A DNA stretch of 64,000 bases from Bdellovibrionales bacterium (GTDB taxonomy: Bacteria > Bdellovibrionota > Bdellovibrionia > Bdellovibrionales > JAGQZY01), in NCBI GenBank assembly GCA_031426555.1, contig JANPLN010000030.1, positions 13,125 to 77,124 on the forward strand. The letters are read 5' to 3'. Each line of letters opens with the position of its first letter. Position 1 is the stretch's first letter. The notes beneath the pieces were generated by a model. That model ran no database searches. It was not told the DNA's origin and saw only the letters and a list, made by a program, of their open reading frames with translations. Below are positions 6,024 through 62,989 of the stretch, piece after piece. The translations under genes and the position numbers were made by a program.

Positions 6024-6795
6024 CCATTTCTCCTAGGCGCACCCAAACTGAAATATTTTGGGCAATGGGTTGCAGCCATTGAGCGAAGCGAATGAAGCCC
6101 GCATGTCGCAAAATCATATCTAAAGAAACTTTTTTGTGCGGACTCCACGTGTTCACACAGCGCCAGCCGTGCCGCTCCCAAAGGAGCACAAGGCCTTTAC
6201 GAGAGTAAAACACCCAGTGGTCGGGAACATTATGCGGCCAAAGAGAACCCATACAATAACGACTTATCGAGTCCGCTCGGGGCAAAACCACCAGAGCCCG
6301 TGTCCCTTTTCGCACGACTCTGTCGAGGTCTTCGAGATGTTCCTGGGGCGCTAATAGATGTTCAAACGAGTCCAAATAAAATAAAACATCAAACAGGTTC
6401 GAAAACCGAGCAATATCGGTGGCAAGACGCTGTTTGCTAAAGTTCCGCTCGGCGAGTCTTTCTACAGCGGAGCCATGGGCCTCAAGGCCGAAAACCCGAT
6501 CGTGCTGTTTTGCTAAATGCTCAAGCACAGCACCTCCGCCAAACCCGATCTCCAAGATCACTTCTTTTTTTCCGAGGGAAAGCTGACTGTCTTTTAAAAA
6601 GCGGATGAAGGTTTCGACTTTTGCTGTCTGAATGGCGCCATCGTAATGACCGCGATCCTGCTGATAGGATTCTGTATATTTGAACTCGCGACGATGGGGA
6701 ACAACCTCGGTTCCGCAGGAGAGACAGCCATAGAGGTCTAACGTTTGATTCCACTGATCTGATTGACAGGCGGGGCATAACATTTTGTTAGCCAT
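6001..6795 (-). CDS. Class I SAM-dependent methyltransferase with N-terminal zinc-ribbon
   Basis: CPAC...CLSCG zinc-ribbon motif, then SAM motif I (VILEIGFGGGAVLEHL). Confidence 0.7.
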   Translation of the reverse strand: MANKMLCPACQSDQWNQTLDLYGCLSCGTEVVPHRREFKYTESYQQDRGHYDGAIQTAKVETFIRFLKDSQLSLGKKEVILEIGFGGGAVLEHLAKQHDRVFGLEAHGSAVERLAERNFSKQRLATDIARFSNLFDVLFYLDSFEHLLAPQEHLEDLDRVVRKGTRALVVLPRADSISRYCMGSLWPHNVPDHWVFYSRKGLVLLWERHGWRCVNTWSPHKKVSLDMILRHAGFIRFAQWLQPIAQNISVWVRLGEMGVVFEKL

Positions 6796-8160: not shown

Positions 8161-10620
8161 TTGGGGGAGTTTAAAAACATGATGTTTCTTTTCACATTGA
8201 TTTCTCTTTTAAAAGCCGTCGAACCGCACCCCGCGGTCTCGTGGGAACAACTGCTGCAAGAGGGACGGTATGAAGAGTCGTATTCTGTGGCAAAGCAACA
8301 ACTCTCAGGATCGTACACGGATTTTTATCTCGGCTTGATTTCGCAAAAAAATAAAAAATGGGAGGTGAGTCTCGAACATCTCACCAAGGCTCAGTCGCAA
8401 AGTCCTGATGTCTTAGATTATGTGGCCATCTCGCGCGGAATTTCGCTTTTCGAAACTGGCAATTTTCAAAAAGCCTTGGACGAATTTACGTCGGCCGAAA
8501 AACAAGCCCGCACAAAATACACCGCGGATGTGGCGCGCTTCTATCAGTCCGAAACTCTTGTGGAGCTGAAGCAATGGAAAAAAGCCGAGCCCTTGTATCA
8601 AAAGAATCTCAAGCGTTTGCAGCGCACGGGTTTTTATTCGTCAGTGCTGTGGGGTTACCTTGCAACACAAGTCAAAAACCATAAAAACCAAAAGATCTGT
8701 CGCTATTCGAAAGAACTCTATCTTAAATTCCCAGCCTACGAAAAAATCGCCGACTGGGGAATCCGTCATCACGAAAACGCAGTTCTAGGTCAAAAACTCA
8801 ACTGTTTAGTGACCCTGGCCGAGCAAAAAATGCGTGTGCAGCGGTTGCTCTGGGCGGGCCTCGAAGACAAAGCCTCTAAAGAAATTCAAGATTTACAAAA
8901 ACGTGCCAGCCCTGAAGCGCGCTACGAAGTGGACCAGCTGTATGTGAGCTATCAATTGCATGAGGGGCATGTGGACGAAGCCCTCAAAACACTGTTGTCG
9001 TATCAAAAAGAAAAGGAAAACGACAACGACTACTTGATGAATTTGGGACGCGTGTATTCGCGAACAAACACTCCGCAAAAAGGCATCGAGGCCTACTACC
9101 GTGCGTACCAAGTAGCGGTGAGGCCGCAAGTGGCCGCGGCCTCCTTGTTTCAGTCGGGCTTTGCAAGCTATGTGGTGCACGATTATGAGTCCGCTTCGGC
9201 AAAATTTAAAGAGTACTCCACCAAGTATCCAGCGGGCAAAATGGCCACTGACAGTTTGTGGTATCAAGCGTGGCTTCAGTATTTACAAAAAGACTACGTA
9301 CAGGCCGAAAAATCTTTCTTTCAAATTTCAGAACATAAAAAGAGCAAGCCGCGTTTATGGCAAGATCACAAAGAAGATAAAATTAATTATTGGATGGCCA
9401 TGAGCTTGCTCCGCCAGGAAAAAAAGCGCGAGGCCTACGAAATTTTCACCCGCATGACCCATGATGAGTCTGTGGGCTATTATTCTGTGGCAGCCTATCA
9501 GCGCTCGCAACAATTGCTCAACCAAATGGGAACCAAACTTGCACAAAGAACTCCCGCAAGCGCCAGCAGTAATGCCAGTAATAATGGCAACGGCGTTTTA
9601 TTGCCAGGCATTCACGAAAACTGGTGGTTGTCGGATGCGGTGGCCACCGGCGACGGCGACAAAGATCGCGACGAGAGCGAAGAAACGCTAACGCAGTTAC
9701 CAGATCCCTTTGAACAAAAAGTGGATGCGATGTTGAGCGCCGAAGAGGTGGTCGAAGACGAATTTCCCGAGGGCGAAACTTCACCGGAGCAAAACCTTTC
9801 CCAGGACATGAAAGCTGTGTATTTTAACAATATCGAAAAGTCCCTGCAGCGCGCGCGCGTGCTGTCTCGAGTGGGGATGTGGGACTTTGCGTATCGCGAA
9901 GTTTTGGATGCCGAAGGAAAAAAACTTTCGCAGTTTCAAAAACAGTGGCTTCTGCAAGCCCATCAGTCAGTGCATTCCTACAATCGTTCGGTGATTTTAG
10001 CATCGCACTTCTTTGAAGATCAAGCGGTGAAAATGGGTTTGCACCACGGCAGTGATTATTGGACCTATTCTTATCCCAAGGCCTACGAAAAATGGGTCAC
10101 CGATCAAAGCCAAAGCCTCAAAATCCCTGCGGAGTTTGTGTGGAGTATCATGCGTGCCGAAACTATTTTCCGCGCCGACGCGATCTCGCCGGTGGGCGCT
10201 CGCGGTTTGATGCAGGTCATGCCGCGCACGGGGCGAAAATTGGCGTCGTTGATGAGTGTGAATGCTATTCAGGTAGACGATTTGTTAAAGCCCGAAGTAT
10301 CGATCCGTTTTGGCAGTTTTTATTTGCAGCGTTTGCTTAAAAAGTTTAACGGCAACATCAGTCTTGCCGCCGCCGCTTACAATGGGGGCCCGCATCGTGT
10401 GCACGCATGGATGCATTATTTTGGCGATTTGGAGCAGGATGAGTTTATCGAGCACATTCCCTATGTCGAAACCCGCAACTACGCAAAAAAAGTGACCAAG
10501 TATTTTGCGATTTATAATTTGTTGTACAAAAAGAAAACCAACGCCACGGAATTTTTAGTAAAACCCCTCGGGTTCAAAATGGAAGGCTCGGTTCCTACCA
10601 TGGAGACTTGGGAGCGCTAG
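8161..10620 (+). CDS. slt: Soluble lytic murein transglycosylase (Slt70-like: superhelical N-domain plus SLT domain)
   Basis: 819 aa. Signal-like N-terminus and a long TPR-like repeat region. C-terminal SLT catalytic block IMRAETIFRADAISPVGARGLMQVMP...AAAYNGGPHRV. The ORF starts at TTG 8161; ATG 8179 or 8182 are alternatives. Confidence 0.85.
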   Translation: MGEFKNMMFLFTLISLLKAVEPHPAVSWEQLLQEGRYEESYSVAKQQLSGSYTDFYLGLISQKNKKWEVSLEHLTKAQSQSPDVLDYVAISRGISLFETGNFQKALDEFTSAEKQARTKYTADVARFYQSETLVELKQWKKAEPLYQKNLKRLQRTGFYSSVLWGYLATQVKNHKNQKICRYSKELYLKFPAYEKIADWGIRHHENAVLGQKLNCLVTLAEQKMRVQRLLWAGLEDKASKEIQDLQKRASPEARYEVDQLYVSYQLHEGHVDEALKTLLSYQKEKENDNDYLMNLGRVYSRTNTPQKGIEAYYRAYQVAVRPQVAAASLFQSGFASYVVHDYESASAKFKEYSTKYPAGKMATDSLWYQAWLQYLQKDYVQAEKSFFQISEHKKSKPRLWQDHKEDKINYWMAMSLLRQEKKREAYEIFTRMTHDESVGYYSVAAYQRSQQLLNQMGTKLAQRTPASASSNASNNGNGVLLPGIHENWWLSDAVATGDGDKDRDESEETLTQLPDPFEQKVDAMLSAEEVVEDEFPEGETSPEQNLSQDMKAVYFNNIEKSLQRARVLSRVGMWDFAYREVLDAEGKKLSQFQKQWLLQAHQSVHSYNRSVILASHFFEDQAVKMGLHHGSDYWTYSYPKAYEKWVTDQSQSLKIPAEFVWSIMRAETIFRADAISPVGARGLMQVMPRTGRKLASLMSVNAIQVDDLLKPEVSIRFGSFYLQRLLKKFNGNISLAAAAYNGGPHRVHAWMHYFGDLEQDEFIEHIPYVETRNYAKKVTKYFAIYNLLYKKKTNATEFLVKPLGFKMEGSVPTMETWER

Positions 10621-10668
10621 GAGATGGTGATGCGTTTTTGGTTCCATTTCCTTCTTTGATTTCTGGGG

Positions 10669-10710
10669 CCCTCTCTTTTTAAGACGCGTCCATCCCTGGA
10701 CTCGCTTGCA
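10669..10710 (+). repeat. Armless (solo) copy of the giant-hairpin core motif
   Basis: CCTCTCTTTTTAAGACGCGTCCATCCCTGGACTCGCTTGCA aligns with 35477-35516 of hairpin D (CCTCCCTTTTAAGACGCGCCCATCCATGGACTCAGTTGCC). No complementary right arm was found. Confidence 0.7.
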
Positions 10711-10744
10711 AATCGACGATGTATACTAGGCAATTGATACAAAT

Positions 10745-11032
10745 ATGTATTTTATTATGAGGAAAGAAATGGTGCTTGAGGCGTATTTTCAGAAATTAAT
10801 TGACCGGGTGGAACTAGAGATTTCCAATCAGGGGAAAGATGAGAATGGATTTTTTAAGCCGACTAAAACGATTCTGGTGCGGCATTTAAGCACTCTCAAA
10901 GACTTGCACAGCAAGCCTTTGGCAAAAGATATCGTCAAAGCCTCGTGGCAGTACGTGAACGAAAATCTCCCGCCCGAGTGGTTGGTGCTCACACCCACCG
11001 AAAAAGCTGAGCTTAAAAAAATCCTGGCTTAG
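10745..11032 (+). CDS. Hypothetical protein (95 aa)
   Basis: The ORF is not overlapped by any gene call. No motif recognised. Confidence 0.4.
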   Translation: MYFIMRKEMVLEAYFQKLIDRVELEISNQGKDENGFFKPTKTILVRHLSTLKDLHSKPLAKDIVKASWQYVNENLPPEWLVLTPTEKAELKKILA

Positions 11033-11034
11033 AA

Positions 11035-11082
11035 GGTACGGCAAGGGGCAAGGCGCCTTCGGCGCTTAGCTCGCTCCGTACC
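11035..11082. terminator. Nested hairpin between convergent genes (family-2 terminator-like repeat, copy X)
   Basis: Outer stem GGTACGG (11035-11041) pairs with CCGTACC (11076-11082). Inner stem is GCGCC-TTC-GGCGC. The reverse complement aligns over about 50 nt with 60169-60233. Confidence 0.6.
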
Positions 11083-11083
11083 G

Positions 11084-12109
11084 TTAATTCATCTGCTGGG
11101 GAATGCGGCCGGCCATGATTTCGGCAAATGGCTGCGTGGCTTCGATGCGCATAAAGACGATTTTTAACACCGCGGTGATGGGCACCGCTAAAAACATTCC
11201 CGACAGTCCCCAAATTAACGCCCAAAACACCAAGCAGATGAGTACGGTGATGGGATGCAAATCCATAATTTCGCCAAGCACTCGCGGCTCAACGATATTG
11301 CCGATGATAAACTGCATGATTCCCAGCACCGTAAAAATCACAAAAAACTGCCAGCCAAAACCGTAGGAATAAAACACCACCGGAAATGGAAGAGCCACAG
11401 CAATGATGGGGCCCACCGTGGGAATAAAGTTAAGCAGAATCGCCGACAAGGTAAAAATCAAAGCGAGGTCGACCTGAAAGGAACCAAGCATAATCAAAAA
11501 CACGACTCCTGCCGCAAGCGCCAAGAATAGTTTTTTTATAGTGTACTCAAAAGTTTTGATCATAATGGTGCGAATCAACGGTGATTTGATCTGCGCATTT
11601 TGATCGCCCACGATCATAAAAGCTGTGTAAATCAACACCAGCGTAAGATTACCGATGATGTAGAACGTTTGCTGGGTAAAATCGCGCACGTACGACACCG
11701 GGTTGAATTCCTTGGCCTGCGCGAGAATAAATTCTTTATCGATTTGAATTCCCGCCGGTAGTTGTTCTTCGATAGAGGTTAAAATATTAGCGAGATAGTA
11801 TTCGTAGCCTGTGATTCCAGTGATGAGTTGTTTCAGCGCCGGAAACATTATCACGATCACACTGACGATAACTCCCATGACTCCGGCAATGGCCACACTG
11901 ATGGCAAGAGTGCGGGGCAGCCTTAAATGAACTTGAATCCAATAAATGATAGGCGCAAAAATCGCATAGGTAAAAATCGCAAACACAAACGGAACAAGAA
12001 CCGGTTTTGTGTAAGTGAGCACGGAGGCCACAGCAATAATGGTGAGGATGACGAGACAGATCTGAATGGTTTTTGTGGCAGTAGTGATCGAAGTGGCAGA
12101 TTTTAACAA
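11084..12109 (-). CDS. AI-2E family transporter (PerM/YhhT, UPF0118)
   Basis: 341 aa, about 8 TM helices. Characteristic C-terminal block NFIPTVGPIIA...GEIMDLHPITVLICLVFWALIWGLSGMFLAVP. TTG start at 12109 with AGGAGA 7 nt upstream. Confidence 0.75.
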   Translation of the reverse strand: MLKSATSITTATKTIQICLVILTIIAVASVLTYTKPVLVPFVFAIFTYAIFAPIIYWIQVHLRLPRTLAISVAIAGVMGVIVSVIVIMFPALKQLITGITGYEYYLANILTSIEEQLPAGIQIDKEFILAQAKEFNPVSYVRDFTQQTFYIIGNLTLVLIYTAFMIVGDQNAQIKSPLIRTIMIKTFEYTIKKLFLALAAGVVFLIMLGSFQVDLALIFTLSAILLNFIPTVGPIIAVALPFPVVFYSYGFGWQFFVIFTVLGIMQFIIGNIVEPRVLGEIMDLHPITVLICLVFWALIWGLSGMFLAVPITAVLKIVFMRIEATQPFAEIMAGRIPQQMN

Positions 12110-12617: not shown

Positions 12618-12792
12618 GTGTACCTCGTAATATGGAACAATTGATACAGAGGTTCGCGAAGAATGAAAAATTATTCGTTGGAATCATCATTCATCAGTTT
12701 TTCTTCTGCGATAATAAATTACTCAGTATGAAAGATTTTCACTAAGTAAAGGGTGATGGTGACCTTGGAATTGTGAAAAACAGGAGTACACT

Positions 12793-13050
12793 ATGCCTAT
12801 GAGTAAAAATTTATGGTTTAAAAAGAAAACGTACGGGTGGGGATGGACACCCTGCAATTGGCAGGGCTTCGTTGTCGTTGGTTTGTACGTAGCCGCTTTA
12901 TGTTTAACAGTCTGGTTTGTAAGAATAGGCATTTTCGAATGGACTCCAACGCAGCTCACCATAGCTATTTTCGCAGAGTTCGCTGTTTTGGTCGCTATTT
13001 CCTACGCCAAAGGCGAAAAGCCTTCCTGGAGCTGGGGCCGATCAAAATAG
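12793..13050 (+). CDS. Small membrane protein (85 aa, two hydrophobic helices)
   Basis: GGAG 8 nt upstream of ATG 12793. Two TM-like segments (FVVVGLYVAALCLTVWFV, IAIFAEFAVLVAISYA). Confidence 0.45.
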   Translation: MPMSKNLWFKKKTYGWGWTPCNWQGFVVVGLYVAALCLTVWFVRIGIFEWTPTQLTIAIFAEFAVLVAISYAKGEKPSWSWGRSK

Positions 13051-13094
13051 CTTTGGGAACCAAATCACTGCCGCTACGGCATTAGGAGCTTCAT

Positions 13095-13229
13095 CAAGTT
13101 TCAATGGTTTCTTAAAAAAGGATGGATTAAAAAGGTTTTTAAAAACGAGTTCCGCAGCGAAGCGAGGACTGTCCGAGATTTTTAAAGACCTTTTTAATCC
13201 ATCCTTTTTTAAGAAACCATTGAAACTTG
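13095..13229. repeat. Giant hairpin A: 51-bp stem, 33-nt loop
   Basis: 13095-13145 pairs with 13179-13229 (position sum 26324), with a single G-T at 13137/13187. Loop is CGAGTTCCGCAGCGAAGCGAGGACTGTCCGAGA. It ends 3 nt from the ychF stop codon. Confidence 0.95.
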
Positions 13230-20409: not shown

Positions 20410-20451
20410 AAAGGTGCAGATGGTCGACTGGCACATGACGACATGCCCAAC

Positions 20452-20616
20452 TTTACAGCACTTTAAGTTTCTGAATTCTTCCAAAAACTCAAATTGTAAG
20501 GAAAAAGACCTCTCGCCAACAGGATGTTGGATCTGCGAGTTGAGCCCACGACGGGCGCGTCTTTTTTCTTACAATTTGAGTTTTTGTAAGAATTCAGAAA
20601 CTTAAAGTGCTGTAAA
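20452..20616. repeat. Giant hairpin B: 58-bp stem, 49-nt loop
   Basis: 20452-20509 pairs with 20559-20616 (position sum 41068), with one mismatch (20481/20587) and one G-T (20501/20567). The right arm covers the last 5 codons and the stop of the gspN-like gene. The loop contains the core motif on the minus strand. Confidence 0.95.
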
Positions 20617-21591
20617 ATTAGGCATTGGGTCGCTAAATCCGTTCGCCTGGACGCGAAATGCGTAGCGCAGGCCTTCGCTGGTGGTTGTACTGTATTTGCC
20701 GAGATATCCTTGAATGGCATCAGCGGCACTGCCGAGCTTGGCTTGCATGGATTTTTTTAAATTTAAATCCACAGCCAAGCTGTAGAAGCCAACGGTGGGA
20801 GTTCCTCCGGGGAATACACGGATGTCCATTTCACCGGAAATTTTTAAAATCATCTCGTCAGAGCCACTGCCGAGCTGAGTCTCTTTGAGCAAAAGCTTTC
20901 CATTCTTTAACGTGCCTTTGAGAACGACTTTTTGAAAACTCATGGCGGGAAGAGCCATGGGGCCAAAACCCGTTGCGATTTCGAACTGCGGAATGATCAA
21001 TTTTGCCAGGCTCATTTCAATCACGCCCTCGGGCTGGGTTTTCATCGATGGATCCAAATCCATCTTCGCGGTCAGTTGCCCGAGCGCAGACGGGGATACC
21101 GGCCAGTTGGGGCCCAAACTTTTTGCGAGAATTTTAACATCAAAATCAGAGTAGTTCAGATCGAGCTCGATCGCCTGCGGATCTTTGATTTTTGAACTCG
21201 CACTGGTTGAGGCCTCGAGCGTTCCGCCAAAAAGACCTTCAGCATCGATGTTGACGTGGGGCTTTAGAACTTTGGTAAAAGCAAATTGAATACAAGCGAG
21301 CACTGATGGTGCCACCTTCAAGTACTTCACTTCGACCTGCTCGATCATAGGACTTTCCACCAGCGCTTGCTTCATGATGACGGCTGGACGGGGAAAAAAC
21401 GACAGGTCCATGCTCTCAAATTCTAGATAAATAAGGCCACTGGCGTTGGTTTCGGCGACGATCTTTTCGCCAAGCTCAGTCAGTGGAAAAAACACCACGG
21501 AAAAAACCAAACAGCACAACAAAAACATGACGATCTTCATTTTGTGAAACAAAAAAATCGTCTTTATAAAATCAATCACTGTTCGTAGCAT
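20602..21591 (-). CDS. gspN: Type II secretion system protein N-like
   Basis: 329 aa with a single N-terminal TM. It is the last gene of the gsp operon, directly after gspM. Assignment is by position and topology only. Confidence 0.5.
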   Translation of the reverse strand: MLRTVIDFIKTIFLFHKMKIVMFLLCCLVFSVVFFPLTELGEKIVAETNASGLIYLEFESMDLSFFPRPAVIMKQALVESPMIEQVEVKYLKVAPSVLACIQFAFTKVLKPHVNIDAEGLFGGTLEASTSASSKIKDPQAIELDLNYSDFDVKILAKSLGPNWPVSPSALGQLTAKMDLDPSMKTQPEGVIEMSLAKLIIPQFEIATGFGPMALPAMSFQKVVLKGTLKNGKLLLKETQLGSGSDEMILKISGEMDIRVFPGGTPTVGFYSLAVDLNLKKSMQAKLGSAADAIQGYLGKYSTTTSEGLRYAFRVQANGFSDPMPNFTAL

Positions 21592-29039: not shown

Positions 29040-29057
29040 AAATAAACCTCAAAGTTT

Positions 29058-33272: not shown

Positions 33273-33431
33273 GGGTGTATCCTCAATTTGGCAAGTCCAT
33301 AGAACGAATGATTTCGAGCTGACTCTTCGTTACTTCTCCTCACGTTAGCGTTTCACTACCGTTTCGTCGTCGCGCCTCGATTCAGCTCGAAATCATTCGT
33401 TCTATGGACTTGCCAAATTAAGGATACACCC
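33273..33431. repeat. Giant hairpin C: 50-bp stem, 59-nt loop
   Basis: 33273-33322 pairs with 33382-33431 (position sum 66704), with one mismatch (33284/33420). It begins 26 nt upstream of the gspD ATG, in the gspD/gspC divergent intergenic region. Confidence 0.95.
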
Positions 33432-33498: not shown

Positions 33499-33569
33499 TC
33501 GAGTCCAATAAGACTCGACCCCAAAAAGACGCGAGTCCAATAGGACTCGACCCCAAAAAGACGCGAGTC
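33499..33569 (+). repeat. Tandem 32-bp repeat (2.2 units) of the hairpin-core motif
   Basis: GAGTCCAATA[A/G]GACTCGACCCCAAAAAGACGC occurs at 33501-33532 and 33533-33564, then GAGTC. Each unit holds a 7-bp mini-hairpin (CGAGTCC...GGACTCG) and the AAGACGCG motif. Confidence 0.9.
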
Positions 33570-33670
33570 AAAAAAACTAACACAGCAATTCAGTGCGAAT
33601 TTTCTCGCACAAGGTCGAGATGACAAAAGGGGAGGTCCTCTTTTGCTAAACATTTGTTACTCTGTTCCTT

Positions 33671-34748: not shown

Positions 34749-35438
34749 ATGGGGATGAGCACTGTATTAATGTTTACAGGTCGCAGTGGGGTAGATCAGT
34801 TAGAGTTTCGTCAGCAGTTGTTGCGGGTTCCAGAAGTGTCGATCACTCTGAAAACGGCGCAAGCAATTCTCGAAGCCAGCCAGCACAAAGAAGCAAAAGA
34901 GCTTATGAGCTTGGCGCACTACGAAACAAACGAATATTTATCTGCCGGTCTTTGGCGAGATTTCTTAGCGCAATTGATGCAAATCGGTCTTTATCGTCGT
35001 TACGAAAAATTATCAGCCCGACCACAATATATAATCGGCGACTCTGGCGAATGCTCAGCTTCAGCTGTGTGTTTAGGAGCCATGACTCTCGAAGAGTACG
35101 TGGGGCGCTTTTTGGAGCAGCTCGAAAAACGAAACGCCGAAGAACAATCCAAGGAATTTTTAGTTGGTCACCGTTTAGAAAGTGCAAAAATTTACGAGCG
35201 CACGTTTGAAGGCTACGTCGTTAAATCCGAAGGCAAAGATCTCTGGAGTTTGTTTGATGATCTTCGCAAAGATCATTTGATCGACCAGATAGTCACCCTG
35301 GGCACAGCACCAAGTAACAACTGGCACATCGAGCAGGATCTCGGCATGGTGGAATCGGTTGTGATGGATCCTTTGCTCAGCTGGATGCTACCTTACTTGC
35401 GTTCTAGCACTGTGCCGCTGAATGTGGCTTACGGATAG
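34749..35438 (+). CDS. Hypothetical protein with remote resemblance to the N-terminal half of malonyl-CoA:ACP transacylase (FabD/AT fold)
   Basis: By eye: VLMFTGRSGVDQ matches FabD FVFPGQGSQ, and YIIGDSGECSASAVCLGAMTLEEYV matches FabD MAGHSLGEYSALVCAGVIDFADAV. It is only 229 aa and the GHSxG nucleophile elbow is altered (GDSGE). Confidence 0.3.
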   Translation: MGMSTVLMFTGRSGVDQLEFRQQLLRVPEVSITLKTAQAILEASQHKEAKELMSLAHYETNEYLSAGLWRDFLAQLMQIGLYRRYEKLSARPQYIIGDSGECSASAVCLGAMTLEEYVGRFLEQLEKRNAEEQSKEFLVGHRLESAKIYERTFEGYVVKSEGKDLWSLFDDLRKDHLIDQIVTLGTAPSNNWHIEQDLGMVESVVMDPLLSWMLPYLRSSTVPLNVAYG

Positions 35439-35444
35439 ACTGCG

Positions 35445-35581
35445 ATTTTTAACTTTTAGATACAATTTTTTTAGAACCTCCCTTTTAAGACGCGCCCATC
35501 CATGGACTCAGTTGCCCCCGTCCGGGTCGCAAAGGTCTTAAAAGGGAGGTTCTAAAAAAATTGTATCTAAAAGTTAAAAAT
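35445..35581. repeat. Giant hairpin D: perfect 47-bp stem, 43-nt loop, flanked by 7-bp direct repeat
   Basis: 35445-35491 pairs with 35535-35581 (position sum 71026) with no mismatch. The loop carries AAGACGCGCCCATCCATGGACTCAG. GACTGCG occurs at 35438-35444 and again at 35582-35588. Confidence 0.95.
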
Positions 35582-35725
35582 GACTGCGTTTGCTTAGCAA
35601 ACTTAGACTACTGCCGAAGCGGAAGTACTTGCGCGTTGGAAATTATTTCGAATCTTCCAATTCTGCCAAGAGACTTCATGGAAGTTCCAAATGTCCAATG
35701 ACTCACGTCCACGAATGTATCCTAA

Positions 35726-50178: not shown

Positions 50179-52147
50179 ATGGCATCCGTTCGCATCACTC
50201 TCCCAGATAATTCCATCAAAAGCTTCGATCAATCTCCGACTATTTTACAAGTGGCTGAAAGCATCGGACCCGGCCTCGCAAAAAACTGCGTGGGTGGTTG
50301 TATCAATGGCAGTAAAGAAATTATTGATCTTCGCACCCCCTTGAGTGATGGCGATCGCCTCGAAATCGTGACTTCTAATTCTGAAAAGGGACGAGAGGTT
50401 CTACGTCACTCGGCTGCCCACATTATGGCGCATGCGGTGCAGGAATTATTTAAAAATGTAAAGGTGACCATCGGGCCCGTCGTGGATGATGGTTTCTACT
50501 ACGACTTCGACCCTGAAACTCCGCTCACTTTGGCTGATCTGCAAAAAATTGAAGATCGCATGTACGAAATCATCCAGCGCAATGTTCCGCTGGTGCGTGA
50601 AGTGTGGCCCTCCGACAAAGCGGTCCAAGTTTTTGCCGACATGGGCGAGAGTTACAAAGCCGAAATCATCAGCGATCTAAAAACATCCGAAGTCTCCATT
50701 TATAAACAAGGCACATGGTTTGATTTGTGCCGTGGGCCCCATGTGCAAAGTACTGGGCAAGTGAAAGCCGTGAAAGTGATGTCCATCGCCGGCGCCTACT
50801 GGCGGGGAGATCAAAAAAATAAACAACTTCAGCGCGTTTATGCGACGGCTTTCAACGACAAAAAAGAACTCAAAGAGCACCTAAATAATCTCGAAGTCCA
50901 AAAAACGCGATCACCGAAAAATCGGCAAAGAGCAGGGACTGTTTATGTTCCACGACTGGGCGCCAGGCATGCCGTTTTTTACTGCCAAGGGCACGGTGAT
51001 TTACAACGAACTTGCCAATTACATTCGCGAGCTCTATCGCAAGTACGATTACAAAGAAGTGATCACTCCCCAGTTGTACGACTCGAATCTGTTTATCACC
51101 TCTGGTCACTACGGCCATTACAAAGACAATATGTACTTTAGCGAAGTGGGCGACAACAAAACAGAAGTGGGCGTCAAACCCATGAATTGCCCTGGCCACT
51201 GTTTGCTTTTTGATTCTGAAAAACACTCGTATCGCGATCTTCCTTATCGAATGGCTGATTTTGGCAGGCTCCACCGCTATGAGGCGAGCGGCGCGCTGGC
51301 GGGTCTCACTCGCGTGCGTTCCATGTCGCAAGATGATGCCCATATTTTTTGCACCGACGAGCAACTGCAAAGCGAGATGGAAGGTTTCATGACTTTCCTC
51401 AAGGAAGTTTACTCGGCCCTCGGTATGTACGAGTACAAAGTCTACATTGCTACACGCCCAGCCAGCCGCATGGGGTCCGATGATTTATGGGATCGCGCTG
51501 AAGGTGCTCTCACAGGCGCCATGGATAAATTGGGCGTACCTTACCAAATCAATCCCGGCGACGGCGCCTTTTACGGTCCCAAGATCGAAGTGCATTTTGT
51601 CGATGCCATGAAAAGAACCTGGCAGCTCGGAACTATCCAGGTGGATTACAATTTACCTAAAAATTTCAATCTCACCTATACTGGCGACGACAATACAGAG
51701 CATATGCCAGTTGTACTTCACCGCGCGATTTTAGGAACGCTTGAGCGCTTTATCGGAATTTACATCGAGCAGTGTGCTGGCAAATTCCCTCTCTGGTTAT
51801 CACCAACACAAGCGGTGATTCTGAATGTGACGGACCGACAAACGGAGTATTGCCTCGAACTCAAAAAGAAACTCGTCGCTCAGGGTGTGCGCGTTGAGTA
51901 TGACAGCCGCAACGAAAAGTTGGGTTACAAAATCCGCGAAGCCCAATTACAGCAAATGCCTTACATGTTGATCATCGGCGATAAAGAAATGGAACAGGGC
52001 TGTGTTTCTGTTCGTTTGCGCTCAGGTGAGATGATCAATTTTATTCCTACCGATGAATTTATTAATAAAGTTGTGGGTGAGATCAAAACTCGTCAGCTCA
52101 CTTCTGTTTTTGAAAATGCGAACTCAACAAAGGAGATAAGCCATTAA
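50179..52147 (+). pseudogene. thrS: Threonine--tRNA ligase, reading frame interrupted by a +1 shift in an A6 run (50900-50905)
   Basis: ORF 50143..51141 carries the TGS and editing domains up to ...KELKEHLNNLEVQK. ORF 50945..52147 (frame +1) carries the class II core and anticodon domain. Frame 2 already reads RDHRKIGKEQGLFMFHDWAPGMPFF from 50906. Deleting one A restores LEVQKRDHRKIGK, which matches the conserved ThrRS junction. Confidence 0.85.
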
Positions 52148-58075: not shown

Positions 58076-59055
58076 TGTGGGAAGCATCGGCACCTGCAAA
58101 TATCGCCCTTATTAAATATATGGGGAAGCGCAGTTTCAGCTCTGCAAACACCACTCAAGCGAACGTCAACGTCGCGATAAATCCTTCGGTCTCTTGGACC
58201 TTGGATCACCTGCGAAGTTTTGTGCAGCTAGAGCTTGTTGACGCCAACGAAGGCCAGAGCGACCTGTGGCAGCCACATCCCCAATGGGCGTTAGAAATGA
58301 GTGAAGTGGGGCTACAGAAATATCTTGCCCATCTTCAACGCGTAAAAAAAATGTTTTCCGCCGAAAACTATTTTTTTAAAGTGCGATCGGGAAATAATTT
58401 TCCAGCAGATTGCGGAATCGCCAGCTCGGCTTCGAGTTTTGCAGCGTTGACTCTCGTGTCGTCGCAAGCTCTGGCGCACTTGACCAAAAAGCCTCTTCCA
58501 GCGATGGAGACCCTTGCAGATTTGAGTCGACAAGGCTCCGGCTCGTCGTGCCGCTCGTTTTTTTCGGGTTTTGTAGTTTGGGAAGAGCAGGGCGTGCGAA
58601 AACTGCCAACAACTACTACGCTTCACCACCAAGTCGTCATCGTGAGTGGCGATAAAAAACAAGTGTCTTCGTCACAGGCCCATCAACGAGTTCAGTCGAG
58701 TTTACTAATGAAGCAACGGGAAGAGCGTGTTCAGGTGCGTTTTACGTCGCTGTGTGAGCAACTACTCAGTGGCACCCCCGATTGGAAAAAGTTATATGAA
58801 CTCACGTGGTCGGAATTTTGGGACATGCATGCTCTCTTCGAAACCAGTGACCCCTCCTTTGGCTATATGACATCAAAATCGCTGGAGGTTCTGAATATCG
58901 TGCGCGAATATTGGCTGCAAAAACAGGACGGCCCTCTCGTGACCATGGACGCAGGCCCCAATGTGCATTTGTTATGGCGACACGATCAAAGGACCATGGC
59001 CCAGGAGTTTGCAAAAGCAAACCCGCAATGGAAGTGGATTGAGGACGCCCGATGA
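58060..59055 (+). CDS. mvaD: Diphosphomevalonate decarboxylase
   Basis: ASAPANIALIKYMGKR, GIASSASSFAALT and GSGSSCRS are MVD signatures. Confidence 0.88.
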   Translation: MAVVVMWEASAPANIALIKYMGKRSFSSANTTQANVNVAINPSVSWTLDHLRSFVQLELVDANEGQSDLWQPHPQWALEMSEVGLQKYLAHLQRVKKMFSAENYFFKVRSGNNFPADCGIASSASSFAALTLVSSQALAHLTKKPLPAMETLADLSRQGSGSSCRSFFSGFVVWEEQGVRKLPTTTTLHHQVVIVSGDKKQVSSSQAHQRVQSSLLMKQREERVQVRFTSLCEQLLSGTPDWKKLYELTWSEFWDMHALFETSDPSFGYMTSKSLEVLNIVREYWLQKQDGPLVTMDAGPNVHLLWRHDQRTMAQEFAKANPQWKWIEDAR

Positions 59056-59945
59056 GGTCGCCAATTGAGGAAACCATGAGTTTTAAGCATCGAGTTTTTG
59101 GCAAATGGATTTTAGCCGGCGAGCACGCTGTGCTTCGCGGTCACACGGCCATGGTGTTTCCAGTGACGTCTTGTTACTTCGAAATTGAATACAAACCATC
59201 TTCCAATAAAATCAATCTCACTTGTGATTCAGATCAGGGTGAGCAAATGAAAATGGTTTTTATGGGTTTGCTGAACAAAGCACTTTCGGATCTCGGCAAA
59301 GAAACCACGGAGCTCACTGGCGAGCTGAGTATTTTCAATCGCATCCCCTTGGTCGGTGGGATGGGCGCGAGTGCCGCTATCTGCGTATCCGTCGTAAAAT
59401 TTTTAAATTATTTAGGATTTGTGGAAGAGGATAAAGTTTTTTCATTCGCCAAGTCCTTGGAAGATTTGTTTCACGGTGAGAGCAGCGGCGTGGATGTGGC
59501 CATTGCACTTCAAGCTCGTCCTTTGCTTTATAAGATTGGCGAATTTATTCCCTTTGATCCCCAGTGGAAACCCTATTTGTATTTATCCCATTGTGGAAAA
59601 CGTGGAGTCACAGCCGATTGCATTCGGCGGGTTAAAAAATTATGGCAAACCAATGAAAGTTTGGGCCAGATGATTGATCTCGATATGCAACGCAGCTTTG
59701 AACTGGCGCAAAAAGCCCTGAGCAGACCCGATTCGATGCATGAACTCCAGCAATCCATTTTGCTCGCGCGATCCTGTTTTGAGCGCTGGGGCTTGGTGAG
59801 TGTGGAGTTGAGCGAGCACATGAACGAGCTTCACAAGCTGGGCGCCATTGCCACCAAGCCCACCGGCAGCGGCGATGGCGGTTTTGTTTTAAGCCTCTGG
59901 GACCAGAAGCCCACTACCACATCGATCGACCTCCTCGAGTGCTAG
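59052..59945 (+). CDS. mvk: Mevalonate kinase
   Basis: GKWILAGEHAVLRG (MK N-terminal motif), GHMP motif PLVGGMGASAAICVS, and C-terminal KPTGSGDGG. Confidence 0.8.
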   Translation: MRSPIEETMSFKHRVFGKWILAGEHAVLRGHTAMVFPVTSCYFEIEYKPSSNKINLTCDSDQGEQMKMVFMGLLNKALSDLGKETTELTGELSIFNRIPLVGGMGASAAICVSVVKFLNYLGFVEEDKVFSFAKSLEDLFHGESSGVDVAIALQARPLLYKIGEFIPFDPQWKPYLYLSHCGKRGVTADCIRRVKKLWQTNESLGQMIDLDMQRSFELAQKALSRPDSMHELQQSILLARSCFERWGLVSVELSEHMNELHKLGAIATKPTGSGDGGFVLSLWDQKPTTTSIDLLEC

Positions 59946-59951
59946 GTACGG

Positions 59952-60168
59952 ACACACTTTTTGGGACTCATTGCATAAAATTTCTTGCACGAGAATTCCT
60001 TAAACCTTTTATTTATTTCGCAGCACTCGCGGACACGGGCTCGTCTTCGTAGGTCGTCATTGCATGACGCCCCACGGATACGCCCCGTTCGCACGTGAGC
60101 TCGTAAATAAAAAGTTTAAGGAATTCTCGTGCAAGAAATTTTATGCAATGAGTCCCAAAAAGTGTGTG
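59952..60168. repeat. Giant hairpin E: 65-bp stem, 86-nt loop, inserted in a family-2 hairpin
   Basis: 59952-60016 pairs with 60103-60167 (position sum 120119), with one mismatch (60006/60113) and a terminal G-T. Flanked by GGTACGG (59945-59951) and GGCACGG (60169-60175). The loop carries the core motif on the minus strand. Confidence 0.95.
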
Positions 60169-60233
60169 GGCACGGAGCGAGCTCTCCTCGCGAACGAGCG
60201 CCGAAAGCGCTTTTGTCCATTGCCTTACCTAGC
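60169..60233. terminator. Family-2 terminator-like hairpin, copy Y
   Basis: GGCACGGAGCGAGCT...AGCGCCGAAAGCGCTTTTGTCCATTGCCTTACCTAG aligns with the reverse complement of 11035-11084. The inner AGCGC-CGAAA-GCGCT is followed by TTTT. It lies between the convergent mvk and coiled-coil genes. Confidence 0.6.
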
Positions 60234-60241
60234 TACGTAAC

Positions 60242-62989
60242 CTACTGGCAGATTTGGGTGAAAATGTTTGTCTGCGGTGCTAACGGCTCTTGGGGTGTGG
60301 GGATGTTGAGGGTGGTTCTTAGCTGTTCGTCAATTTGGGCGACTTGGTTGTTTAAATTTAAGATTTGCGGACAGGTGTCGGCGACGACGGATTTGAGTTC
60401 TATGCTTTTTAAAGAAAGCAGAGAGACTTTTGCCATCAAAAGGGATTCTTCGGCGAGAAGGTCTTCCTTTTGTTTTTGTAGGACCAAGAGGGCGGCCTCA
60501 CTTTGAACTAACAAAGTATTATAGTTTTTTATCGTGGCTTCAATGTCCGTTATTTTCTGCAGGGCCGCTGTCTTGTTTACGAGCAATTCATTAATATTGT
60601 TTTGGTTAGCGTACTCAGTTGCGGCGAGTTGTGAGGCAGTCAGTTCGCCAGCAAGCCTACTGCTTTCGCTGTTCTGAACGTCTATTGTTTGCAAAAGTTG
60701 AGACTGAATTTGCAAAACGGCATCTTCAAACTGGGCCTTTCCGATAAAAATCTGCTGGAACGAATTTTCGCATTGAGCGGGATTTATGGAAGGAACGAGA
60801 CACTGTGTAAACATCGTCTCGAGGAAGGTCGAGGCTTCGGTGCTCTCTTGCAATTTGGAAACCTGCAGGCGAAAATTTTGTACTAATGCATTGAATTCGC
60901 TTTCTTTGGAGCGAAAACCAGCCTGTGATTCTTCAATTTTGGCAGACACTTCTTGGATGTGGACTTGCAGGTTGGTCGTCTGGATATCTAAGTTGTTCAA
61001 CTGCTGCTTTTCACATGCAAACACGTTCGTATAAAAGTCTGAATTGTAAATCGTATTTTCACCGATATTGTTAAGCTCTGGATTGTTGCAATTCGAAAAT
61101 TCGTCGCTGGTTCGTTGTTGGGAAGACCAACGCCAAACAATGAGACGGAGCAGGGTCCAATTTTGTAACATGACTTCGAGTTCAGAGTCCGAAGCACCCA
61201 GTTCTTGGGAAAGCCGTTCAGAGACAATTTCGACCTTACTTTTTTCTTCGTCCCAGGGTTGGGGCACACCACTCAAAAGAGTGTCGATGGTTGTAGGAGG
61301 CAAAGAGTTTAATAGTTGAGTTCGCAAAGAGGTGTTTAAAAGTTCGTTGGGATTGAGACAGGGACTTTTCTCAAGCTGAGGGTCAAGAATGATATTTGGA
61401 TCGCAAACTAAGTGCATAAAAATCAGAGCTCTTGATTCGATATTTCGTTTTATAAACGAATTCAATTCCTGACTCAGCTGTTGGAATTTATTTTGGTGAT
61501 AGGCGAACTCATTGTCAAAAGTTCTCTCTCCTTTGATAGAGATGGTATCTTCGATTCTCGTGTTTAAAATGATAAACGAAATATCGTCGAGATCTGCATA
61601 ATAGGGGATTTGATTAAACTGGCGTTTTGCTCGTTCGATTCCTTGAAGTTCTGTCTCAGCTTTTGTCTTCTCGGAAACAAACTCAAGATAGTGAGTAAAC
61701 GCTGTGTCTTGCTGGCGAGCGGCGTCTACTAACGTCTTTGAGCCATCGTGAAAAAGTTTTAAGGATTCAATCTGTCGGTTGATCCGATTGTACTCCTGGG
61801 TGCGCGACCCTATTTCGGCATTTTTTTGCTCGATGGTTTCCAAGTTCCAAGGAGGAGAGCTTTGAGGGATACTTTCTTTTGGCGGTACCAGCAAAGTTTT
61901 TTCCTCGAGCATTTCTGTTAAATGTTCGATCATTGCCATGACCTCGTTCGACTTGGCTCGAAGCTCCTGTTCTCGCTGACTGAACTCATTAATTTTAGGT
62001 AAAAATGGCGCGAGTGATTGATTGATGACTGCAATTTCGACGGTTGCCGTGGCACTATTTTGCGATTCCTGCGAAATATTACTTTTTGTCGAGGACAGTG
62101 TCGCCTGAAGATCTTTGATTTGTTGATTTATTTGCGGGATGAGACCACTTTGTTGTTCTAGACCGCCTGATATTGCTTGGAGTCGGCTCTGAATTTCCTG
62201 TTGTTGAGTAGAAAAGTCTTTGAATGAATTCACAGCATTTGAAAGAGACTCCGATTGGAATGCGGCAAATTGCGCAATGAGAGTTTCTTTTTGTTGAAGA
62301 AGCGGCAGTGCAGAATTATAGCTGTCTAATGTGATAGGCAACGACTTATCAACTCCTTGGATTTCACTCAGCTGTTGAGCGTAATCGAGAAGACCAAACC
62401 CTGTGGATACGGCGTCTTCCGGTAAATATTCAAAAGACTTTTCGGCCATGCATGCGATCGCCAATTTTTTGTAAGCATTCGTAGTTCCACTGAGACTTAA
62501 ATTGGCTGACCACAAATTACCAGTTTCGCTTTCGACTACAACGTTTGCTCGTATTTGCGATAGGAAAAGAGCCACCATTGCCTGGATTTCTCGTACGTCC
62601 AAATCCTTAGTTTCAAACGTCATGGTATTATTGACTGTGGTGGTTGTGCCTGTTAGCTCGATGAGCTTGCTTTCCAAAGTCTGCAGGGTGTCAGTAAGAG
62701 AGGGATTAAAAATGGCGTTATCGCCAATGCCATCGATGTCTTTCCACTGAAGGTATACTTTTTTAGGCTTATGAGAAAAGAACTCAATTTTAAAGGACGG
62801 AGTTATGTTCTGTTTGAAGTTGAATGAAACGCGTACTTCGGACTCAAATTCATTCTCGTCGATTTTAAAGAATAAATTATCAGATTGCTCGACGGAACAA
62901 GCAGCCTCTACAAAATCAAAACCTAGGGCTTGTTGAAAGCCTCCGAAAAGTGTTCCTATAAAAATTGAAAAAAGAATATAATATTTCAT
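60242..62989 (-). CDS. Large secreted coiled-coil protein (915 aa)
   Basis: Start at ATG 62989 (GAGGA upstream) gives signal peptide MKYYILFSIFIGTLFGGFQQALG. Most of the protein is Q/E/L/S/N-rich heptad-like sequence. The ORF extension to 63130 overlaps the PBP gene. Confidence 0.6.
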   Translation of the reverse strand: MKYYILFSIFIGTLFGGFQQALGFDFVEAACSVEQSDNLFFKIDENEFESEVRVSFNFKQNITPSFKIEFFSHKPKKVYLQWKDIDGIGDNAIFNPSLTDTLQTLESKLIELTGTTTTVNNTMTFETKDLDVREIQAMVALFLSQIRANVVVESETGNLWSANLSLSGTTNAYKKLAIACMAEKSFEYLPEDAVSTGFGLLDYAQQLSEIQGVDKSLPITLDSYNSALPLLQQKETLIAQFAAFQSESLSNAVNSFKDFSTQQQEIQSRLQAISGGLEQQSGLIPQINQQIKDLQATLSSTKSNISQESQNSATATVEIAVINQSLAPFLPKINEFSQREQELRAKSNEVMAMIEHLTEMLEEKTLLVPPKESIPQSSPPWNLETIEQKNAEIGSRTQEYNRINRQIESLKLFHDGSKTLVDAARQQDTAFTHYLEFVSEKTKAETELQGIERAKRQFNQIPYYADLDDISFIILNTRIEDTISIKGERTFDNEFAYHQNKFQQLSQELNSFIKRNIESRALIFMHLVCDPNIILDPQLEKSPCLNPNELLNTSLRTQLLNSLPPTTIDTLLSGVPQPWDEEKSKVEIVSERLSQELGASDSELEVMLQNWTLLRLIVWRWSSQQRTSDEFSNCNNPELNNIGENTIYNSDFYTNVFACEKQQLNNLDIQTTNLQVHIQEVSAKIEESQAGFRSKESEFNALVQNFRLQVSKLQESTEASTFLETMFTQCLVPSINPAQCENSFQQIFIGKAQFEDAVLQIQSQLLQTIDVQNSESSRLAGELTASQLAATEYANQNNINELLVNKTAALQKITDIEATIKNYNTLLVQSEAALLVLQKQKEDLLAEESLLMAKVSLLSLKSIELKSVVADTCPQILNLNNQVAQIDEQLRTTLNIPTPQEPLAPQTNIFTQICQ

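Follow-up and report, generated by a model that had tools for sequence, protein, structure and literature searches.

A long hairpin nested in a small GC-rich intergenic element downstream of the mevalonate kinase gene in an uncultured Bdellovibrionales bacterium

The stretch of DNA that we analysed, here called the window, covers 64,000 nucleotides (nt) of an uncultured Bdellovibrionales bacterium (GenBank assembly GCA_031426555.1, contig JANPLN010000030.1, positions 13,125 to 77,124) and has a GC content of about 47%. The list of its open reading frames (ORFs) places a mevalonate kinase gene, mvk, on the plus strand at 59052 to 59945, with a TAG stop codon at 59943 to 59945. It closes a mevalonate-pathway operon. 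PF00288 is found in its homologs, which the source records call mevalonate kinase, and its operon neighbours belong to HMG-CoA reductase and MVD-like Pfam families. Downstream of mvk lies a convergent minus-strand gene of 962 amino acids (aa), which ends at 60242 and has its stop codon at 60242 to 60244. The space between the two genes holds hairpin E, a 216-base inverted repeat (59952 to 60167) whose arms are complementary at 63 of 64 positions, and a small GC-rich element that we call family 2. The two are nested, and this work concerns how they came to be so.

From left to right, the region begins with the family-2 terminal repeat GGTACGG (59945 to 59951, plus strand), whose first base is the G of the mvk stop codon, so that the left flank of E reads TGC TAG/GTACGG (here and below, slashes mark junctions). 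The left arm of E (59952 to 60015; 64 nt, AT-rich, about 35% GC) leads into an 88-nt GC-rich imperfect palindrome around GTCATTGCATGAC (60016 to 60103), which forms the centre, and the right arm (60104 to 60167) has one C/A mismatch to the left arm. The right flank reads G GGCACGG AGCGAGCT on the plus strand. It consists of a single G at 60168, the GGCACGG at 60169 to 60175 that is the left terminal repeat of a family-2 copy, a 47-nt GC-rich family-2 interior (60176 to 60222) with mini-hairpins CTCG-CGAA-CGAG and GCGCC-GAAA-GCGC, and the family-2 right terminal repeat CCTTACC (60223 to 60229). The last of these is CCGTACC in relatives and in the other family-2 copy of the window. An unstable zone of short repeats, TAGCTAC GTAAC CTA (TAGCTACGTAAC), occupies 60230 to 60244 and terminates in the stop codon of the convergent gene; here, relatives have TAGCTAC immediately before TGGCAG. 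The DNA fold of 59940 to 60240 gave -107.6 kcal/mol (z = -16.4 versus shuffles). In the predicted folds, the left GCTAGGTA pairs with a far-right TACCTAGC, enclosing both E and the family-2 interior, and in the window the left GGTACGG is paired to CCTTACC at 60223 to 60229.

We gathered orthologous loci by a chimeric-protein query search and by exact-protein look-ups; the mvk homologs and related loci belong to metagenome-assembled genomes (MAGs) named Bdellovibrionales, Bdellovibrionaceae or Pseudobdellovibrionaceae. Below, species A is the window, species C is GFS_9251 (contig L008), species F comes from JGI 3300048583 and species G comes from SRR28493908. VAR_79 was assigned to species B because its statistics are identical to those of contig L016. 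The mvk nucleotide-identity tree is ((A, C 0.91), B 0.89), with F at 0.84, G at 0.82 and more distant lineages at 0.75 to 0.81 outside. A metagenome scan with the conserved mvk 3' end (TCGACCTCCTCGAGTGCTAG) returned a single chance match, in the unrelated high-GC contig L015, and a homolog search with the C-terminal part of the 962-aa gene returned the same organism only.

The original prediction, made from the window alone, held that E had inserted into a family-2 element and that removing 59952 to 60175 would restore a copy like the uninterrupted one at 11035 to 11082. That copy fills the gap between a short plus-strand ORF (stop codon 11031 to 11033) and a minus-strand AI-2E transporter gene (stop codon 11084), and its RNA fold gave -30 kcal/mol (z = -4.0). 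We joined 59930 to 59951 to 60176 to 60240 and aligned the product with the reverse complement of 11025 to 11095. The local alignment score was 48, far above the background of 2,000 shuffles (mean, 13.2; standard deviation, 2.3; maximum, 27), none of which reached 48. The alignment was 15/15 at GGTACGGAGCGAGCT and continued through AGCGCCGAA(A/G)GCGC and TTG.CC.TTGCC.TACCT, with an extra segment of 12 to 13 nt in the 60169 copy, by which its interior exceeds that of the 11035 copy. The position of E inside a family-2 element was confirmed. The family-2 copy to the right of E is also complete by itself (60169 to 60229, GGCACGG...CCTTACC, 14/15 at the left end), so the in silico deletion is not needed to recreate a copy, and the sole surplus is the left GGTACGG.

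These two copies are the only family-2 copies in the window (mutual alignment z = 10), and about 355 kb of clade DNA yielded no other independent one. The DNA adjoining the 11035 site is non-homologous in species B and in JBGSUL01, which left us without an ortholog of that site; since the neighbourhood is unalignable in relatives, no empty site, family-2 ends or family-2 target duplication can be defined there. The sequence GGTACGG/CCGTACC occurs 9 times in the window, versus 2.5 expected. Six of these occurrences (5248, 12132, 17996, 19392, 31549 and 41164) lie outside the family-2 copies with no paired partner close by. Searches of phage, plasmid and viral collections with E and family 2 gave no match. 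Window segments 10620 to 11084 and 12742 to 13085 are non-homologous to species B, which has ORFs of 187 and 199 aa and a Peptidase_M90-like gene; these differences in gene content are small and lie beside hairpin sites.

The original prediction further proposed that E is flanked by a 7-bp target duplication, with GGTACGG as its left copy and GGCACGG as its right copy. The two match at 6/7 with a 1-nt offset, or equivalently as GG-T-ACGG versus GG-GC-ACGG. Random positions give a match of at least 6/7 at offsets 0 to 1 in 0.64% of cases and a 7/7 match in 0.03%; such a flanking repeat was present at two of the ten giant hairpins examined, where about 0.06 would be expected. The other hairpin, I5 (35445 to 35581, plus strand), has the perfect direct repeat GACTGCG at 35438 to 35444 and 35582 to 35588, and at both hairpins the 7-mer starts at the G of a TAG stop codon. 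In species B, the flanks of the orthologous hairpin E' are not a direct repeat but the inverted pair GGTACGG/CCGTACC, flush with the arm. The case for the duplication thus comes from the window and the analogous I5, and it requires a later deletion in species B. A 7-bp target duplication at E is plausible, given the unusual repeat in the window and its perfect counterpart at I5, but the direct form did not extend to species B. Duplication of TA, TAG or CTAG at the mvk site would also be compatible with the empty alleles described next, though the native GCTAGC palindrome makes it impossible to tell apart.

Across species and strains of this one clade, the 300-bp site after mvk exists in at least seven allelic states. 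In species A, the stop codon is followed by GGTACGG[E]G-GGCACGG-interior-CCTTACC. Species B (L016, L021, L030 and numerous contigs broken within the hairpin) has GGTACGG[E']CCGTACC, in which all parts are flush and form a perfect palindrome from GCTAG to CTAGC with 75-nt arms. Three other species-B alleles read TAGGTA/GCTAC (L002), TAG/CTAC (L023, where the site reads TGCTAR/CTACTGGCAG) and TAGGTAC/CTAG... (L029). GFS_9251 reads TAG-CTACG-CAC-TTTTGCCCCTTG-CCGTACC and retains the right part of the family-2 interior without E. In species F (L026), GGTACGG is followed by hairpin E'' and then by the contig end; in species G, one contig (L027) has GGTACGG and ACACACTTTTTGGGACTT before it ends, and another (L031) reads TAA/CTACTGGCAG. 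Neither E nor family 2 is present in L002, L023, L029 or L031. With no terminator between them, the convergent genes of these empty alleles abut at their stop codons (TAGCTA). One species-B sample has a sevenfold tandem expansion, (TACCTAGCTAC)x7, at the right base of E' (L021, 4459 to 4540), and window positions 60237 to 60245 hold a 9-nt partial echo of it, GTAACCTAC.

Two loci, GL114 (L010) and the JGI contig L004, carry a different hairpin (giant in GL114, partial in L004) that, like E, lies a few bases from the mvk stop codon. Their arms are unrelated to those of E, and since recurrent insertion at one site is proven at the I2 site (below), they are at most candidate orthologs of E. A 33-nt stretch of the family-2 interior has 27/33 identity, reversed, to part of the GL114 hairpin loop (z = 7.7). 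Beside this family-2-like stretch, the same loop holds a 49-nt near-perfect GC-rich palindrome, GCGCGAACCCCTAAGCGAGAGCTCGCGCTCTCGGGTAAGGGGTTCGCGC (L010, 5083 to 5131). In the more distant YUYA23, the spacer between mvk and the convergent gene is 40 nt long (L028, 1943 to 1982) and contains ACACACAGTTTTTT, which resembles the first bases of the E arm and may be a deletion remnant or the ancestral spacer.

The junction TAG-GTACGG-ACACACTTTT(T)GGGACT is common to species with mvk identities of 0.89, 0.84 and 0.82, and the outer 17 nt of the E arm, together with GGTACGG, are invariant in species B, F and G. E is therefore orthologous in A, B, F and G and is old, not recent. On these comparisons, E is an ancient, vertically inherited and often deleted element rather than a freshly inserted one. 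Deletion is frequent and uses short repeats at the base of the stem, where CTAG and GTAC each serve as both direct and inverted repeats. None of the relatives compared has the split family-2 arrangement at the mvk site without the hairpin. Some relatives have E with both family-2 end repeats and no family-2 interior, and GFS_9251 has a family-2 remnant only. These results uphold the idea of a secondary insertion insofar as relatives show E, family 2 and the empty site apart from one another; they also move the event back in time, since it is shared by at least three other species.

E is one of five giant hairpins in the window. Besides E and I5, these are I2 (20443 to 20625, minus strand), I4 (13095 to 13229, 3 nt from the ychF stop codon) and I3 (33273 to 33431), a clean 159-nt insertion without target duplication in a divergent promoter region. 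I3 is absent from species B and GL114, which both have the empty site GGACTC(A/T)TTC/TATTAAACC with a 2-nt loss at the junction; this shared empty site shows that whole hairpins can arrive as units. A half-hairpin relic on the plus strand at 10655 to 10709, consisting of a left arm and the first half of a core, is a deletion derivative of a complete form with 55-nt arms that some species-B strains keep. The original prediction had suggested the 5' edge of gene-end hairpins as a target of giant hairpins. We found no support for such a rule: I2, I3, I4 and I5 interrupt no family-2 copy, and among the hairpins of the window and the relatives examined, no other giant hairpin breaks one.

Several smaller features accompany these hairpins. 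In GFS_9251 only, a small GC-rich hairpin element that we call gamma, GTCATCCTGAG(TGG)CGCAGCGAAGGATCTC, lies 2 nt outside I5 (L011, 1955 to 1990); in species B, gamma is allelic with a giant hairpin after an 809/819-aa gene (L032, about 6240 to 6275, reverse strand; L035). Near I3, the divergent promoter region of the window holds a tandem array of 16/32-nt units (CGAGTCCAATAAGACTCGACCCCAAAAAGACG) at 33500 to 33579, and GL114 has in the same place (L014, about 1400 to 1700) a different, longer array with a unit of approximately GATCGAGCCATAAAGCGAGACGGGTATT. A further GL114 hairpin of 163 nt (25-nt arms, 113-nt centre; L009, 2293 to 2455) stands between same-strand genes where the window has 18 nt (29040 to 29057). 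Window positions 52026 to 52101 contain an overlapping 42-nt imperfect palindrome, 71% complementary, that is also present in contig L001.

Most giant hairpins consist of a conserved GC-rich core, alpha or beta, set in unrelated AT-rich arms, with turnover by deletion and by inverted copying of flanks. What is shared between sites is a GC-rich core of about 60 nt plus about 12 to 20 nt of inner stem, and the 45- to 75-nt arms are unrelated. The alpha core, AAGAC-GCG-[GTCCAT CC ATGGAC]-TC-[CTYGCA N15-17 TGCRAG]-AG-GTCTT, occurs at four unlinked sites (nhmmer E values from 1e-11 to 1e-19): after mvk (E' and E'', with E values of 4e-19 and 5e-15), after the gene at 34749 to 35438 (I5), after the 819-aa gene (the 10655 to 10709 relic; full in L033) and after the gene at 20602 to 21591 (I2, in minus orientation). 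In all four cases, its orientation matches that of the upstream gene. Its mini-hairpins show compensated changes (GTCCAT/ATGGAC versus GTACAT/ATGTAC and CTCGCA/TGCGAG versus CTTGCA/TGCAAG); in our MAFFT alignment of alpha cores, the right basal stem is off by one column between site groups. The beta core of I4 is homologous to the loop of the hairpin that GL114 carries at the I2 site (z = 13). That site has an alpha hairpin in the window, a beta hairpin in GL114, a beta remnant in species B and nothing in GFS_9251, which proves recurrent insertion at one site, with different hairpin types in different lineages. The L004 hairpin after mvk is alpha-like by modest alignment scores only (z = 3.6 and 4.2), and the GL114 hairpin there is alpha-like by eye only, its scores against the other cores being at background.

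E itself is best explained as a diverged member of this long foldback family in the 3' intergenic DNA of the clade. In a global alignment, its centre, which occupies the position of the alpha core in E' and E'', visibly lines up with the alpha core of E', but significance was absent and we rejected it as a recognisable alpha core. Its probable membership in the alpha family rests on the orthology of position, junction and outer arm with E' and E'', and its centre has either diverged or been partly replaced.

The arms evolve in a manner of their own. Those of E are 68% and 64% identical to those of E' and E'', compared with 60% and 52% at the 4-fold degenerate sites of the operon, so the arms drift at about the neutral rate. 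Complementarity within each hairpin nevertheless stays at 97 to 100% (97 to 99% for the arms of E'). I5 is common to the window, GFS_9251 and species B; its arms, which are 47 nt and perfect in the window, are 100% complementary in all three species despite only 79 to 83% identity between the window and the two relatives, and each difference in one arm is mirrored in the other. Such mirrored changes would be explained most simply by intramolecular template switching or arm-to-arm conversion, and template switching is known to create and maintain perfect stems (PMC8794818). The arms can also extend into native flanks by inverted copying: the E' palindrome reaches the mvk stop codon (GCTAG...CTAGC), and in I2 the outermost 25 nt on the right coincide with the last codons and the stop of the gene at 20602 to 21591, a native 3' end that relatives have in single copy, and the outermost 25 nt on the left repeat this sequence in inverted form. 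Asymmetric forms exist in I4 of species B, whose left arm is full and whose right arm has the outer 16 nt only, in I5 of GL114 and in the window relic. In all-against-all comparisons, we found no shared arms among the five window hairpins or those in relatives, and there was no second copy of any arm in about 480 kb.

These properties raise the question of whether the hairpins simply grew in place, each small gene-end hairpin having been enlarged by repeated inverted copying through template switching, with GGTACGG/GGCACGG as a by-product. The inverted copy of a gene end in I2, the missing inner right arm of I4 in species B and the published precedent for template switching (PMC8794818) all fit this idea, as do the I5 site of GL114, where a 9-bp stem stands beside an alignable left arm, and the short YUYA23 spacer with its E-like ACACACAGTTTTTT. 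The flanks of E speak against it, since template switching gives inverted rather than direct flanks, and the empty mvk sites have no spacer that could have served as a source for 64-nt arms. Moreover, the 159 nt of I3 are missing from two outgroups with an identical empty site, and the presence of the same alpha core at four unlinked sites implies dispersal. We therefore regard growth in place as a rather improbable origin for the arrangement at mvk.

We favour the order put forward in the original prediction, E into family 2, and give it an even chance of being right. Under this order, family 2 would originally have occupied the junction at which the stop codons of mvk and of the convergent gene abut; an uninterrupted element at the mvk stop would read TGCTAGGTACGGAGCGAGCT. 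Before species A, B, F and G separated, the ancestor of E would have entered family 2 a few bases in from its left end, duplicating the 7- to 8-bp terminal repeat GGTACGG. Since then, as the comparison shows, the element has been inherited vertically, with the arms drifting about neutrally and every change mirrored in the other arm, and has repeatedly been lost, whole or in part, by deletion between short repeats (CTAG, GTAC and TA) at the stem base. Species B would have lost the family-2 interior, leaving the perfect palindrome, and GFS_9251 would have lost E plus the adjoining part of family 2. The nested topology fits this order: GGTACGG...CCTTACC surrounds E and the interior in species A, GGTACGG[E']CCGTACC remains in species B, and the other alpha hairpins lack such ends, which indicates that the ends belong to family 2 and not to the hairpin. 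The more distant GL114 also counts for it, having family-2-like sequence at the same locus, and deletion, which is needed to derive the species-B state, is the dominant process at these sites, as the 10655 to 10709 relic and the shortened right arm of I4 in species B exemplify.

The reverse order is possible, but we hold it to be clearly less probable. In that case, a palindrome GCTAG-GTACGG[E]CCGTAC-CTAGC would be ancestral, family 2 (or its interior and left end) would have come later to the base of the right arm of E in the ancestor of species A and C, and the direct repeat would pair the outer arm of E with the newcomer's own terminal repeat. The flush palindrome of species B and the restriction of the family-2 interior to the sister pair A and C agree with such a history. 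So does the behaviour of other small GC-rich elements, namely gamma, which in GFS_9251 entered 2 nt beyond the edge of a giant hairpin already present and which in species B is the allelic counterpart of a giant alpha hairpin, and the extra GC-rich palindromes in the GL114 hairpin loop. Reverse order must nonetheless account for outer ends of E that equal family-2 terminal repeats and are absent from other alpha hairpins, and for family-2-like sequence at the locus in GL114 as well. Insertion of a complete family 2 would moreover have produced two copies of CCGTACC; one is seen, so that an extra deletion or microhomology-guided copying would be needed.

Several observations weigh against insertion of E into family 2 and against parts of the account built on it. 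By parsimony, the tree ((A,C),B) allows the family-2 interior to have been gained in the ancestor of A and C just as readily as lost in B, and the arrival of gamma at the edge of the older I5, in GFS_9251 only, and the GC-rich palindromes in the GL114 loop point the same way. The second copy of the direct repeat is confined to the window and is imperfect (T to GC), and in species F and G the contigs stop inside the hairpin, before the right-hand side of E. I2, I3 and I4 have no flanking duplication, nor do the GL114 hairpins, so a 7-bp duplication is not a hallmark of the family. The centre of E gave no nhmmer match to alpha, and its local alignment score was reached by 242 of 2,000 shuffles; about 250 kb of clade DNA contained no second copy of E. 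No mobilising enzyme or transposase link is known (the window ORFs were not screened for transposases). Taken together, the observation behind the original prediction is confirmed, its interpretation is partly supported, and the targeting rule is not supported.

Two further explanations concern the contigs. Short-read contigs (MEGAHIT and Logan: L001, L007, L017 to L020, L022, L024 to L027 and L030) stop 1 to 100 nt into the mvk hairpin. The breaking of short-read assemblies at hairpins (L001, L007, L017 to L027) is what would be expected if the hairpins were assembly artefacts, such as chimeric inverted duplications. We put the probability of an artefact close to zero, given that complete orthologous hairpins were assembled independently in different samples and species (E' in L016 and L021, I5 in three species) and that these differ from one another in ways that look evolutionary and recur, mirrored, in both arms. 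In one contig, L019, the left arm is followed by the centre in reversed orientation, as it would be if the centre were an inverton that flips between the long inverted repeats. We consider this very improbable. The L019 path is expected from de Bruijn-graph ambiguity in a perfect palindrome, and other contigs stop exactly at the arm mismatch. Centres of 43 to 88 nt are very short for a switch, the orientation of alpha relative to the upstream gene is constant at four sites, and no recombinase was identified, the ORFs not having been screened for one.

The fixed orientation of alpha relative to the upstream gene suggests co-transcription and a role at the RNA level. The hairpin would be transcribed with the upstream gene, and the 3' stem-loop could terminate or stabilise transcripts between convergent genes; these features suggest, from sequence, termination, 3'-end protection or processing of a long duplex as candidate roles. 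Hairpin E would also provide a highly stable stem-loop, readable on either strand. The frequent deletion alleles indicate that the element is dispensable. Whatever its role, the locus is a natural time series that shows how a bacterial chromosome gives rise to very long palindromes, keeps them perfect, lengthens them and deletes them, and in which two processes usually studied separately, the dispersal of a conserved core and the local remodelling of stems, are seen jointly. If functional, the alpha core, being oriented, having covarying mini-hairpins and belonging to no Rfam family, would be a new RNA or DNA motif in an uncultured lineage of predatory bacteria. A practical consequence for short-read metagenome assemblies is systematic breakage at these hairpins, exactly where genes end.

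Among known systems, we compared the hairpins with the Correia/NEMIS elements of Neisseria, the ERIC/IRU elements of enterobacteria and the Rickettsia palindromic elements, whose copies are alike over their full length and share terminal repeats. The hairpins described here are also non-coding, 130 to 240 nt long, folded as a single long hairpin and placed in intergenic DNA beside stop codons, and they too show presence or absence in close relatives, occasional short direct repeats and nested or adjacent insertions. Presence and absence with a recoverable empty site, as in miniature inverted-repeat transposable elements (MITEs), was found at the mvk site (L023 and L031), at I3 (species B and GL114) and at I2 (GFS_9251). 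Unlike MITE-like families, in which whole copies are alike, these hairpins share only the core, with unrelated arms and an inconsistent target duplication (2 of 10). The absence of shared arms rejects a simple multi-copy MITE family, and by shared terminal inverted repeats and overall sequence we likewise rejected a MITE assignment for the five window hairpins and those of relatives, whose arms and ends are unrelated. For family 2 and gamma, the nearest analogues are elements of the REP/BIME type, which are small, GC rich and palindromic. Family 2 resembles them as a 30- to 50-nt GC-rich imperfect palindrome at gene ends and between convergent genes, clustered with other repeats; it differs in that no more than two copies were found and, by informal comparison, in being unrelated to the Escherichia coli REP consensus.

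Other classes fitted less well. A consensus scan of 59000 to 61000 for intrinsic terminators called nothing in E or family 2; GCGCC-GAAA-GCGC (60198 to 60210) is followed only by TTTTGT, and the 11035 copy has no T run. Across the whole window, no Rfam family gave a gathering-level match, and the sub-threshold matches were to generic long-hairpin models. TwoAYGGAY RNA (RF01731; Weinberg et al. 2010, PMC2864571) is similar in having a long basal stem around two small hairpins, and the alpha core, read antisense to the upstream gene, has CCAUGGAUGGAC at the tip of one small hairpin. We rejected this assignment. The scores were 27.9 bits (window) and 32.7 bits (L016), versus a gathering score of 43, and were on opposite strands in the two; plant microRNA precursor models outscored TwoAYGGAY on the same DNA, which indicates that the matches are driven by hairpin shape. 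The published taxa (human gut, gamma-proteobacteria and Clostridiales) also differ from this clade (PMC2864571). Hairpin elements of organelles, such as those of sponge mitochondria, repeatedly invade intergenic DNA and vary between close relatives, as do the hairpins here; as described (PMC2800124), they are organellar, much shorter and grouped in sequence-similar families.

The hairpins also resemble template-switch quasipalindromes (Ripley model; Monttinen and Loytynoja 2022, PMC8794818) in their mirrored multi-base arm differences, in the extension of stems by inverted copying of flanks (I2 and E') and in their asymmetric forms (I4 and I5). Template switching fits the arms once palindrome-stimulated deletion is added to cover the losses. 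The documented stems are of a few to about 10 bp and lie in RNA genes (PMC8794818), in contrast to the 50- to 75-bp intergenic palindromes seen here, and the mechanism leaves core dispersal and flanking direct repeats unexplained. Our literature search found no description of such elements in Bdellovibrio-like bacteria. It is conceivable, though we think it unlikely, that the alpha and beta hairpins are an undescribed kind of element, either one whose oriented core disperses to the 3' ends of genes and rebuilds long stems from adjacent sequence by transposase-independent template switching or a new structured RNA that needs a stem of 50 to 75 bp. As a class, these giant hairpins, with their conserved cores, variable arms and rapid structural turnover, are a variant within the known palindromic intergenic elements of bacteria.

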